From Eledone cirrhosa (taxonomy: Eukaryota), in NCBI GenBank assembly GCA_964016885.1, contig OZ024758.1, forward strand, positions 18,786,001-18,850,000: DNA of 64,000 bases. Reading direction: 5' to 3'. The translations under genes and the position numbers were made by a program. This document shows, in pieces, positions 7,601-54,553 of this stretch; within the stretch, counting starts at the first letter, position 1, and every line of letters begins with the position of its first letter. Below the pieces are notes generated by a model. The model saw only the letters and a program-made list of their open reading frames with translations, had not been told where the DNA came from and did not search any database.

Positions 7601-8002
7601 AGGCACACATAAACATAAATATACACATACACACACATTAAATACACAGTATTTCCTCCCGTGCAAATATATTTTCTCTTTCTTTCTTTCTGACACTCAA
7701 CTCTCATTCAAATTCAATTAAATTCATGTTCTATAGTAATAACACCAGAATCTTCAATATGCTTTTTCTTTTGTATCAAGCATTAAACTAATATACAACA
7801 TTGTTGTACTGTATTCATCTTTCATGTTAGCTTACCGTGTTGATTTTCGTCAACGTATATATATATATTGTTATAATTTGGGAGGGTCATGTTGCCAATA
7901 AGAAACACACGCACCAGTTGCTTTCACTTCAATTTATTATAATAAATTTATAAATTTCTGGTTGGTTTGTTGGTTCCACAACCAGATAGTTGTTTATATA
8001 TT

Positions 8003-8045
8003 GTCATAGTTCTTTCGTCACACACTCTGTGACCTCTTCAGTGAC
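8003..8045 (-). ncRNA. Minimal type I hammerhead ribozyme (inverted arm copy)
   Basis: Minus strand gtcactgaagaggtcacagagtgtgtgacgaaagaactatgac, same fold as 8136-8178. Confidence 0.8.
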
Positions 8046-8135
8046 TGGGGATTATTTTCTTTGTTTTTGTGCCTCTCCTTTGTTTCTGTAGGACAGAACA
8101 AAGGAGAGGCACAACAACAAAGAAAATAATCCCCA

Positions 8136-8178
8136 GTCACTGAAGAGGTCACAGAGTATGTGACGAAAGAACTATGAC
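8136..8178 (+). ncRNA. Minimal type I hammerhead ribozyme
   Basis: GUCA-CUGAAGA-g-GUCACA(gagua)UGUGAC-GAAA-GAAC-UA/UGAC: 4-bp stem I, 6-bp stem II, minimal stem III. Confidence 0.8.
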
Positions 8179-8772
8179 AATATATAAACAACTATCTGGT
8201 TGTGGAACCAACCAACCAACCAACCAGAAATTTATAAATTTATAAATTTATTATAATAAATTGAAGTGAAGCAACTGGTGCGTGTGTTTCTTATTGGCAA
8301 CATGACCCTCCCAAAGTATAACAATATCGGTTTCAACACACGATTTCAGATTAAGAATCTTGCTAAACAAATTCAGAAACGAAATATATATATATATATA
8401 TATATATATATATATATATATATATATATATATATATATATATATATATATAGAGAGAGAGAGAGAGAGAGAGAAGGATAATATAAATATAAATGTATGT
8501 GTGTATCTACATGTCTGTGTGCGTATATATATATATAAATATATATATGTGTGTGTGTGTGTGTGAATGTTTGTTTAAAAGTTTGATGGAGGCGTAGTGC
8601 CACATTTAAATTGTATAACCCGTACCTCTGGCGATCTTACCGTAGGAGAAAACGAGTGAGGAAATTCGAAACGCTGAATCTCTCCTTATTCAGTGATGGT
8701 TTATATATATATTCGAAACATCACAGATGGCCTGAGTGTGATTTGAACTCATTACCATATCAATGCATAAGG

Positions 8773-8938
8773 GCAGCAATTATTCCAGTACATTACTGGT
8801 ACTTTATTTTATCAACCCCGTAAGGATGAAAGGCAAAGTTAACATCGGCGGGATTTGAACTCATACCACAAAGGGCCGTAACTCTTGCTACAAAGCATGG
8901 CGTCAGATACTCTACCGATACTGCCAATCCAACACCCT
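8773..8938 (-). mobile_element. tRNA-derived SINE, main family
   Basis: ctggtactttattttatcaaccccgtaaggatgaaaggc..gggatttgaactc. Confidence 0.8.
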
Positions 8939-51290: not shown

Positions 51291-52304
51291 TATCTATCTA
51301 TTATATATATATATACATATATTTACGTCTGTATATGTGTATTATTATATACGTATGTCCAAGTATGTATGTATGTATATATATAAATAAATATATATAT
51401 ATATATACACATATATATATATATATACATATATATATATACATATATATACATATATATATACATATATATATACACATATATATATACATATATATAC
51501 ACATATATATATATATATATATATATATATATATATATATACATATATATACACATATATGCATATATATACATATATATATATATGTGTGTGTGTGTGT
51601 ATTGTGTGTGTATCGAGTCATACTATGTAAAAAAATGTCATAATAGAAAACAATGGAACACAATCAAAAGATGTTTATTTTTATTTATTGTGATGAGGTA
51701 TCTTTGTGATGCTTGAAATCCGTTTTCGTTTATCTGTAATTGAATTGTAAATGTTTACGTTATTCACATCGAAAGATAACACTACATTGAAGATTACGAT
51801 GAAAAGATATCGGTAAATACTGAAGCGATATGAAAATTGGATTAGTATCATTGTACCAGAACAGATATACATTGTTTATTTAACTTAAGTATTTGTCCAT
51901 TTTATTTTTTTTCTGATTATTACCTTGTTCCAATATCGAAATAGATTACATGAGTCTAAATTGTTTCTATTATACAACATGGATTACTGGGAATTGGTTA
52001 GTAAATTATAATAATTTATGCCAGTATAAAAAATAGGTTATGATACGGAAATTGCAAACTTATTAAAGAGATATACTGAGAATCGTACAATATTTCAATC
52101 AGCTAACATACGTTCATTCATGTGCTATCAAACAATTGTAGAAATATTTCAAAATGTACACAACCAGATATAGACATGCACACACACACACACACGCATA
52201 CACACACACACACACACACACACACACACACACACACACATACACACACATACACTCACACAAACACAAGCACACACACATATACAGACATATATATATA
52301 TATA

Positions 52305-52398
52305 TAGGAGAAGAGTCAGGACACCTGACTCTTATCCTATTACACATAGTACTCTGGTGCCTCATGGTCGACCTGGTTCCTTACCTCACTTTATTCGT
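52305..52398 (+). mobile_element. Family A element, short diverged copy
   Basis: Hairpin taggagaagagtcagg(aca)cctgactcttatccta followed by agtactctggtgc..tggtcgacctggttccttac. Confidence 0.6.
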
Positions 52399-53501
52399 TA
52401 TACACACACGCACACACACACACACACACACACACACACACATATATATATATATATATATATATATATATATATATATATATATATATATATATATATA
52501 TATATATATATATATATATATATTAGTTGCAGTTGGCACTCTTATGGACAGACTGTATCGAGATTTCGGGATTATTGTATGATATACAAATACAATTCAG
52601 TCAGGGACAGCCGTATCCATACAGACGCACGTCCAATAGCCTCTTAAACTAATTCAAACACACACACACGCAGAGACATATATGTATTTATAAAGTGAGA
52701 TCCAGAAATAGAGAGATGTGTATATCTATATATATATATATATATATATATATATATATATATATAGAATACACACCTACAAGATAGAGAGATAGATAAA
52801 TAGAAGTTAATATGTAGAAAGTGAGAGAGGCGTAGATCGTTAGATAAATACAGATAAACGTGTGGATTGTGTATCTCCATTTCCCGTTTAACCACTTACG
52901 AGTGAGAACGAGAGGCGTCCTCTGCGATAATACTGGCACCGCTTTTAACAAATCCTCTTTATCTTTCACGTCCATATTTCTTATTCATCTAACCTCATAA
53001 CGTTCTATTTCTGCTCGTGTATTTACACACTTTGAAGTTGTCAAACCTTTTCAGTGTAAAATCGCCTGCATGCCAAACAGTGACTCATTCGATTGCCTGG
53101 AGGTCTTCTACAAAAAAAAAAAACATAAGGAAATATAGATATGCATCTTGAAATGGAAATTTTCGTGTATAAACACGTTTGTCATGGGTAATATTAATTA
53201 TTACACTGCATACATGGAGAATTGCACAATTCTCTTAAAGGAATTTTATGTTATATTAATCGATACTTGGAGCCAGTCATGTAATGTAAACAACCATTTC
53301 GTAGAGAAACATTCTGTTGAATTCACAAGTCAGATCTCTTCAGATATGATATATATTTGTTTCTCTATTTTTCAAGAGATATACATTTATAACTCTTCTT
53401 TGTAATATTTTCTTTCCGTTAACCTTTCCATACACACGACACACACGTCTTAGAGTTATAGCTTACAACATTGAATCAAAACAACACGCGATGACTTAGA
53501 C

Positions 53502-53791
53502 CAGGCATGCGGGTGCATTATGTATGGCTCATCATCAGACAGGCCACAAGCGCTAATTTACATTCGTGGTCATATTAACAGATACAATGGCAGTAACACA
53601 GGTTGTTTCGATTGGTTTCTTCAGACTTAGTACACGTTGTTTTCCTAGATCGTAAACATGATAGAAAGATTAATTACGACTAAAAAGATGGGGTAAACAT
53701 ATCAGAAAGATTTCACAGGTGATTTAGGCGTGGCATTCAGAAAGCATCGCGGGCTGCATGGACCCCGCGGGCGACAGCTTGCTCGTGACTG
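53502..53791. mobile_element. Decayed hAT-like non-autonomous DNA transposon
   Basis: caggcatg left end; right end cgcgggctgcatggaccccgcgggcgacagcttgctcgtgactg resembles the GGCCCGCGGGCC subterminal motif of hAT MITEs. Confidence 0.4.
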
Positions 53792-54360
53792 ATTTACAGG
53801 AGCAGCACCTTACACGTTGGTTGGGTGAGAGAAAGTGATGCATACCGCAATCTCGAACAGACACGCATGCATATAACTGTATCCGACTATTTTGACTCAA
53901 TTATGAATCTGCATTGAATTCCAATGCAGATTACTTTTCCGACAGACCTATAACTTATCGTAGATTATGCATATATGATTTAATTGTTATTCGTACTTGT
54001 TTAATTTATATTGAGAAAAATAGTCATTTACGGCATCTTTGTAATCACCAATACACACACACACACACATATATATATATATATATATATATATATATAT
54101 ATATATATATATATATATATATATATTTATATGTATATGTATATATATATTTTATGTATATATATATATTTATGTATATGTATATATATATTTATGTATA
54201 TGTACTTGTATATGTATATATATATATATATATATATATATATATATGTATATGTATATATAAATATATATATATATATATATATATATATATATATATA
54301 TATATATATATATATATATATATATATATATATATATATATTTATATATATATATATATA

Positions 54361-54553
54361 TAGGAACGAGTAGGACACCAACGGCTGAACTCAAGCCATT
54401 TGAACGGCTAATTCTGGGTACAGAATTAGCCGTCGAGACGGCTTGAGCTCAGCCGTCGGGGTCCTACTCGTTCCTATTACCCACTCTACTATCCTAAGTA
54501 TTGAGTATTTGGGTGCGTTATGGTCCACCTGGTTCCTTACCACATTTCCTTCG
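54361..54553 (+). mobile_element. Family A palindromic element
   Basis: Homologous to 33113-33351 with the same fold-back and tail; TA flanks. Confidence 0.8.

Follow-up and report, generated by a model that had tools for sequence, protein, structure and literature searches.

What are the short islands of unique sequence that lie between the TA microsatellites of the Eledone cirrhosa genome, and do they carry hammerhead ribozymes (HHRs)? We analyzed a stretch of 64,000 nucleotides (OZ024758.1, 18,786,001-18,850,000; hereafter the window) from an assembly of 3.0 Gb in 1796 contigs. Its GC content is 15-39%, and its general repeat and open reading frame (ORF) listings are dominated by the dinucleotide microsatellites in which it is rich. 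An original prediction, made from the letters of the window, had listed 13 HHR folds and read the islands as ribozyme-bearing, TA-targeting remnants of Penelope-like elements (PLEs); with corrections, this interpretation is supported, and the underlying observation is partly confirmed. We propose, with a probability of about 0.88, that the islands are 5'-truncated 3' ends of several Neptune- and Hydra-type PLE families together with a 320-bp tandem retrozyme, each with a predicted type I HHR, and that the GIY-YIG nuclease and reverse transcriptase (RT) of the elements themselves likely placed the islands in (TA)n. What is observed directly is that families A, B, C and X have an HHR linked to an ORF, that each family has two fixed 3' ends, that arms lie head-to-head, that TA stands at the ends and that 5' ends vary.

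We scanned the window first with a strict type I HHR descriptor, then with loosened stems, and then with PLE-type features added. This relaxed descriptor permits a bulged base after A9 and U3 cores, because both are described for PLE hammerheads in the available text of Cervera and De la Pena 2014 (PMC4209133), as well as a mismatched first stem II pair, because it was seen in family C copies; the only core pairs permitted were C3-G8, U3-A8 and U3.G8. Compared with block-wise dinucleotide shuffles of the window, the strict descriptor found a single site (equalled by 4 of 60 shuffles), the loosened one 5 sites (0.55 in 60 shuffles), and the relaxed one 7 matches (mean of 0.68 in 40 shuffles, maximum 2), or 5 at a stricter threshold (0.28 shuffled). 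Six of the seven matches are sites of the original list, and the seventh, at position 3146, is probably a chance occurrence. As a blind sample of the genome, we requested 100 stretches of 10 kb at round positions, of which 98 existed (980 kb), yielding 91 motifs where six shuffles gave 3-5; a single 310-bp array accounts for 17 of the 91. The excess over shuffled controls implied by the prediction is borne out on both scales. Elements were annotated using a library of 16 families, which makes all island coverage given below a lower bound.

No Penelope ORF had been noticed in the window, and a tblastn search with PLE proteins indeed matched nothing there. The ORF links reported here come from elsewhere in the genome, where family searches (40 candidates scored per query) gave first-look counts of at least 2930 (B), 1685 (C), 820 (A), 1864 (D), 843 (E), 1367 (F) and 945 (X) candidates. 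Extension of the family consensuses reached an RT plus GIY-YIG ORF for A and C and the endonuclease end of an ORF for B and X, which turns the Penelope-like assignment, indirect in the original prediction, into a direct one for 8 of the 13 listed sites (two of A, two of C and four of B). The HHR of family A lies ~208 nt after the end of an RT + GIY-YIG ORF in 11 locus-strands. A 633-aa open piece of this ORF (L152) has matches below the Pfam curated cut-offs to GIY-YIG (E=3e-4) and RVT_1 (E=5e-4), and a CxxxxCxxC linker and C/C/H/H residues in the C-terminal endonuclease were read by eye (L081 and L152); these motifs suggest a Neptune-type PLE and are also compatible with Nematis. A PDB sequence search with the family A protein gave no match.

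For family C, HHR and tail run straight into the start of an ORF (L155 and L203) with RWR and DKT motifs and, at its C terminus, a GIY-YIG with a CxCx5C linker, no CCHH, and terminal CxxC and CxH, motifs that point to the Hydra clade. The ORF is split into two pieces by one stop in L203, where a second HHR follows 6 kb after the first, in the order HHR-ORF-HHR of a partial tandem or pseudo-long terminal repeat (LTR); the unit is that long because its 3' untranslated region (UTR) is filled with microsatellite. At E<=1e-30 the ORF has 713 database proteins, the species-named ones among the best 120 being from one coral and one sea cucumber. In L343 and L369, a Hydra-type GIY-YIG endonuclease fragment is followed by ~1.9 kb of UTR (shared with L358) and then by the HHR of family B, and family X follows a Hydra ORF in L215. 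Families B3 and F align with B. The estimate of about five families holds in that several are present, and falls short in that others exist, among them X, the tails of H and I, and G, which is mostly cut off inside the ribozyme and whose hairpin elements close the span originally described. GAGTRC occurs in the tails of B, B3, C, F, G, H and E, five of which have an ACTC...GAGT hairpin, and is absent from those of A, D, J, K and N.

Several loci have long internal microsatellites in PLE 3' UTRs (L155 minus strand, L156, L215, L193 and L165), with kilobases of TA/TG in Hydra families C and X and CT in B; such elements may thus spread simple repeats, and some long TATG tracts of the window could derive from them. 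Fragments with RT and GIY-YIG domains at L093:341-1551 (minus strand), L193 and L360 represent a third PLE type without linker, which we take to resemble Poseidon. Several family X junctions (window position 15483, L267-L274) coincide exactly with the 5' edge of stem I of the HHR, where the query began; this position may be a stop of reverse transcription.

The islands might instead be mainly non-autonomous, either short interspersed element (SINE)-like or retrozymes, with a short unit length of their own rather than truncated from autonomous PLEs. This holds for family D and a second retrozyme, D2, with tandem units of 320 and 310 bp, and it would suit both the many B copies of ~260 bp and families B3, E and F, for which no ORF link was found. 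As a general account we regard it as unlikely, as junctions differ from copy to copy and A, B, C and X extend upstream into PLE ORFs.

The nesting in (TA)n was borne out: 19 of 24 typed 3' ends in the window adjoin (TA)4, as do 136 of 184 in the blind sample (background 3.0%), where (TA)5 also lies within 260 nt downstream of 62 of 90 motifs (background 14.6%). Elements terminate in (TA)n and not in poly(A). The AATAAA/ATTAAA-like signal said to follow the motifs has little support, being found within 100 nt after 30 of 91 blind-sample motifs (33%) compared with 24% in their own shuffled downstream sequence and 15% in the background. Most of the 16 families have two alternative 3' ends, one short and one long, and copies are arranged head-to-head in 38 same-family pairs and 1 cross-family pair of the blind sample, against 1 tail-to-tail pair. 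Among 27 typed pairs, 19 combine a long and a short end, 6 are long + long and 2 short + short; the six long + long pairs comprise 3 pairs of family J (ends 23 nt apart) and 3 retrozyme pairs, some of which are likely internal array units. There is no pile-up of 5' ends at the HHR cut site, 3 of 66 being found no more than 3 nt from it (~6 expected if evenly spread), and 104 of 186 typed segments extend at least 55 nt upstream of it. Partner arms share on average 94.6% identity, compared with 90.8% to other copies, and exceed the family mean in 14 of 17 pairs.

From these features we propose that the nuclease would cut both strands of a (TA)n tract, and that each 3'-OH would prime cDNA synthesis on the element RNA, one at a proximal start and the other at a distal site 23-110 nt further. 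Both cDNAs would stop early and be joined 5'-to-5', leaving a short inverted island with a tail at one end. Lying 15-220 nt upstream of the start sites, the HHR would be carried along, and the copied RNA is likely uncleaved, because copies cross the cut site and 5' ends show no pile-up there. The retrozyme, which encodes nothing, likely borrows the same machinery. Literature searches on 'twin priming' returned nothing related.

The TA association might also arise without targeting, if elements brought or generated (TA)n or if inverted arms came from later DNA rearrangement. The long internal TA/TG tracts of Hydra-type 3' UTRs (L155, L156 and L215) would fit this, and target duplications are unreadable in TA. 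We consider it quite improbable, given that the tail passes straight into the ORF without TA in a tandem copy, that each outer end is an RT start site of fixed position and the short/long pairing is non-random, and that Hydra PLEs are reported to target TA (PMC8557442, section 11 of the available text).

Are the hammerheads themselves real? All 13 listed sites are members of repeat families with a type I HHR, so the list stands at the level of families; at the level of the copies, the core is intact at only 6 (8041(-), 8140(+), 15523(+), 29237(+), 40593(-) and 45535(-)), has a wobble pair at 1 (32935(+)) and is mutated at the remaining 6 (Table 1). The CUGAnGA / GAAA / UH core and three stems are kept in genomic relatives of all families but E, in which 1 of 14 cores read is CUGAnGA. 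The stems had been called unrelated in sequence; six sites (24054, 29229, 32008, 32139, 40536 and 45469) in fact align as a single superfamily (B). We scored covariation for this superfamily alone, using 23 copies chosen by homology (22 distinct): 92.6% of cells are paired, compared with 36-50% in slid controls, and 11 of 20 stem pairs have double changes, with compensatory changes in all three stems, a score reached by 0 of 500 shuffles. The stem covariation called for by the original prediction is present in this superfamily. An origin of the motifs as chance folds of AT-rich DNA with many palindromes, where the repeats would be real and the hammerheads not, is very improbable: the single strict-descriptor site, the non-minimal HHR fold, the mostly non-canonical family E cores and an Rfam scan of the window with no match at gathering score (and, at E<=10, mostly microsatellite matches, with no hammerhead family among 150 of 529 matches listed) would agree with it, whereas the excess of motifs over shuffles of the same 980 kb, the compensatory changes, the core pairs of the blind sample (C3-G8 in 81 of 91 and U3-A8 in 8) and a palindromic loop III and bulged base after A9 that match the description in the available text of PMC4209133 speak against it.

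Sites 15492 and 15812 are a non-autonomous tandem retrozyme, family D, with a 320-bp non-coding unit and a U3-A8 core that is identical in 18 of 28 copies. Copies are 99-100% alike, hence very young, and arms reach up to 1861 nt. Two stretches of the unit, positions 217-223 and 245-254, hold the 3' ends of 54 of 59 arms, and a short end is paired with a long one in 19 of 21 typed pairs (p=1e-4; these loci are top matches, not the blind sample); a retrozyme inserting in this way is a mildly new point. Head-to-head fusions join the retrozyme to X in the window, to the ORF of family A in L095 and, in L097, to a B subfamily; such fusions could also come from deletions between neighboring insertions. 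L158, in which D adjoins a Hydra UTR, was taken for a nested insertion and is left out of these fusions. No pile-up of retrozyme 5' ends is seen at the HHR cut site, with 3 of 59 inside a 9-nt interval. Unit-length cDNA from a circular template, with 5' ends piling up at RT start sites, was considered and dropped, since the signal (14 of 59 overall, p=0.004) was absent from newly fetched loci (2 of 27, p=0.81). Among the data sets listed as containing D none was of RNA; in four contig sets compared with the unit at 15483-15802, relatives of D occur in other organisms, one contig returning from unit end to unit start, which is compatible with a tandem or a circle. The second retrozyme, D2 (L220:3850-9333), has a 310-bp unit and 17 intact HHRs in a head-to-head array, with identical copies at several loci. 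Its stem II, which has a U.U closing pair, resembles that of Hydra family C.

A fuller reading, which we offer tentatively as possible rather than probable, is that the genome holds a quarter million intact-core HHRs and that its insertions record a step of PLE mobilisation in which one ribonucleoprotein, with a single uncleaved RNA as template, primes both strands of cut (TA)n and uses both RT start sites, once each. The GAGTRC-type hairpin of Hydra-type tails would then be a protein-binding site, and the protein-free retrozyme would parasitise several PLE machineries, as its shared insertion signature and its fusions to three PLE families would imply.

A number of points weigh against the proposal of truncated PLE 3' ends inserted into (TA)n. 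A Pfam search with three Hydra-type ORF pieces gave no match, so their clade comes from motifs; the ORF link of family B is known from one locus alone, none of 30 B-tail loci continued into an ORF, and B3, E and F have no link. Only in 7 of 17 pairs is the identity between partner arms as high as that to the best-matching of the other copies, which supports a single shared RNA template only weakly, and TA is presumed to be target rather than product. Nearly half of the listed sites (6 of 13) have mutated cores. For none of the 7 motifs with an intact or near-intact core is the HHR the minimum-energy fold, its energy being 4.5-8 kcal/mol higher. Segment 15483-15600 of the retrozyme has a strong fold (z=-4.65), and its minimum-energy form pairs the core away. 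The scored structure was drawn from the same B-superfamily sequences, which favours the covariation result, and ribozyme activity is predicted from fold and conservation alone. As for the claim that the islands are ribozyme-bearing, TA-targeting retroelement remnants, TA ends, truncation and inversion are found genome-wide, while 2 of the sites belong to a retrozyme, 3 (B3, F and E) stand without ORF link and 30 of 44 TA-bounded islands of the window match no family. The library explains the other 14, and 95 of 411 in the blind sample, so that the statement is true for a minority of islands so far.

The kind of element is not new: PLE hammerheads, tails, inverted arms, TA preference and retrozymes have all been described, including inverted arms, a one-sided tail and TA preference for PLEs. 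The available text of Craig et al. 2021 (PMC8557442) gives for the Hydra clade, with molluscs among its hosts, an HHR, C-terminal GIY-YIG, RWK and DKT motifs, a CxCx5C linker, no CCHH, CxxC and CxH near the end and (TA)n insertion, as found here except that family C has RWR for RWK and a unit of ~6 kb rather than generally <3 kb, and that tails here measure 65-105 nt as opposed to 30-40 bp for PLE tails there. With the Neptune-type minimal HHRs in the available text of PMC4209133, those found here share a 4-bp stem I, a bulged base 5' of stem II, a near-palindromic stem III of 1-2 bp, opposite-strand pairs 100-700 bp apart, the U3-A8 variant and the presence of many families per genome, whereas families B and C have longer stems I and III, and C closes stem II with a U.U mismatch. 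For Poseidon PAc in vitro, the available text of Frangieh et al. 2024 (PMC11167929) traces the tail to two adjacent RT start sites and, in line with the mechanism proposed here, has both strands cut at AT-rich DNA and HHR cleavage unnecessary for insertion; PAc belongs to another clade, and no strand difference in start site was seen there, whereas single insertions here use one site per arm. PLEs have been proposed as mobiliser or origin of retrozymes in the available text of Cervera and De la Pena 2020 (PMC7229834) and of Li et al. (bioRxiv 10.64898/2026.07.22.740005, mainly on vertebrate genomes). Family D resembles the non-LTR retrozymes described in both (GC-poor tandem units of ~300 bp that are non-coding, have a type I HHR and occur together with PLEs), its 320-bp unit falling within the 150-450 bp of tandem non-coding units with type I HHR. 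Unlike retrozymes as published in these texts, it has itself the PLE insertion signature (two fixed 3' ends, a tail at one end, head-to-head arms and TA flanks); the words 'tail', 'mollus' and 'octopus' are absent from the main text of the preprint.

To assess abundance, we extrapolated the blind sample to a genome total of 266,000 motifs (bootstrap 172,000-395,000), or 218,000 (156,000-285,000) with the 310-bp array counted once, that is about one per 11-14 kb. The window had been described as HHR-rich; its 5 matches at the stricter threshold compare with 4.9-5.9 expected, so it is ordinary in intact motifs for its genome, and the landscape is genome-wide rather than local. Its TA density is ~2x that of the genome sample, and it holds 27 family segments compared with 219 in 980 kb. 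Reported HHR counts are 120,000 in axolotl, >6,000 in coral and ~5,000 in mussel, and the available text of PMC4209133 gives ~9,000 for Xenopus tropicalis within a range of ~2,000-9,000 per genome, far below the estimate here. With roughly a quarter million motifs, this genome would have ~2x as many as axolotl, whose genome is 9x larger, with the descriptors differing between the two counts; this abundance is a mildly new point. Literature searches for hammerheads in cephalopods or octopus, with most subscription journals outside their coverage, found no report; Penelope elements are already annotated in octopus genomes, and the word 'ribozyme' is absent from those cephalopod repeat papers.

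Table 1. Annotated elements of the window and state of their HHR cores (window coordinates).
Feature	Position	Strand	Remarks
Family A (Neptune-type PLE, from motifs) 3' end, short-end arm	7865..8089	-	minimal HHR core 8041-8035 intact
Family A 3' end, long-end arm, ~60-nt tail	8088..8384	+	head-to-head with 7865..8089; HHR core 8140-8146 intact
HHR copy absent from original list	11916..11975	+	U3-A8 core 11940; stem I 1 base shorter than L262 copy, by eye
Family X 3' end, Hydra-linked via L215, absent from original list	15290..15482	-	core 15474, ~115-nt stem II, GAAA mutated; head-to-head with retrozyme
Family D retrozyme, 1.77 copies of 320-bp unit	15483..16047	+	cores 15523 (U3-A8, intact) and 15843 (GAAA to GAGA); long end in (TA)n
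HHR family I, tail-only piece	19220..19296	-	
HHR family H 3' end and tail	21416..21555	-	core lost
Family F (B superfamily) 3' end	24019..24217	-	core 24104, position 17 = G; then short inverted tail piece
Family C (Hydra PLE, from motifs) 3' end, 67-nt tail	28042..28325	+	core 28199-28205 mutated (G8 to U)
Family G tail and 3' part of HHR, family absent from original list	28815..28924	-	
Family B, forward short-end arm fused to inverted tail 29079-29150 (-)	29079..29334	.	core 29237-29243 intact
Family G head-to-head pair	30730..30928	.	both arms cut off inside HHR
Family B subfamily head-to-head pair	31867..32243	.	cores 32062 (-, GAAA to AAAA) and 32147 (+, G5 to U), both mutated
Family C short-end arm, inverted tail piece before	32875..32992	+	core 32935, U3.G8 wobble
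Family G head-to-head pair	33112..33351	.	short + long end
Family B subfamily 3' end with tail	40405..40626	-	core 40593 intact; stem II weakened, first pair mismatched
Family B3 3' end with tail	45346..45597	-	core 45535 intact; loop III palindromic; deletion leaves 3-bp stem I
Family E 3' end, HHR-like fold, long stem II	46128..46263	-	core 46257 non-canonical (positions 3-4 altered), as in most family copies
Family G tail fragment	52348..52397	+	
Family G head-to-head pair	54360..54553	.	short + long end
X-like head-to-head pair, diverged	63473..63889	.	beyond span of original prediction

Other features of the window were recorded alongside. Positions 13572-14680 hold a large inverted pair (~13580-13990 and ~14240-14670) beside TA tracts, with a head-to-head look and no HHR core recognised. 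A 267-aa frame at 50223-51026 (+) matches zf-RVT (E=4e-6) and is the 3' end of a non-LTR retrotransposon, with a related copy in L007. The AT-rich segment 56880-58500, with internal duplications, is by eye similar to the long 3' UTR that a further Hydra-type element has in L204. An abundant SINE-like repeat is found at 8740-8940, 16650-16880, 46470-46660 and 47740-48150, several of these beside (TAA)n or AT-rich sites.

For the biology of these elements, the findings account for about a quarter to a third of the short islands found between TA repeats, and at least 16 HHR families at this density constitute a large natural library of ribozyme variants. The PLE mechanism becomes readable statistically from the insertions, through start-site pairing, the likely uncleaved template and the mobilisation that retrozymes would share.

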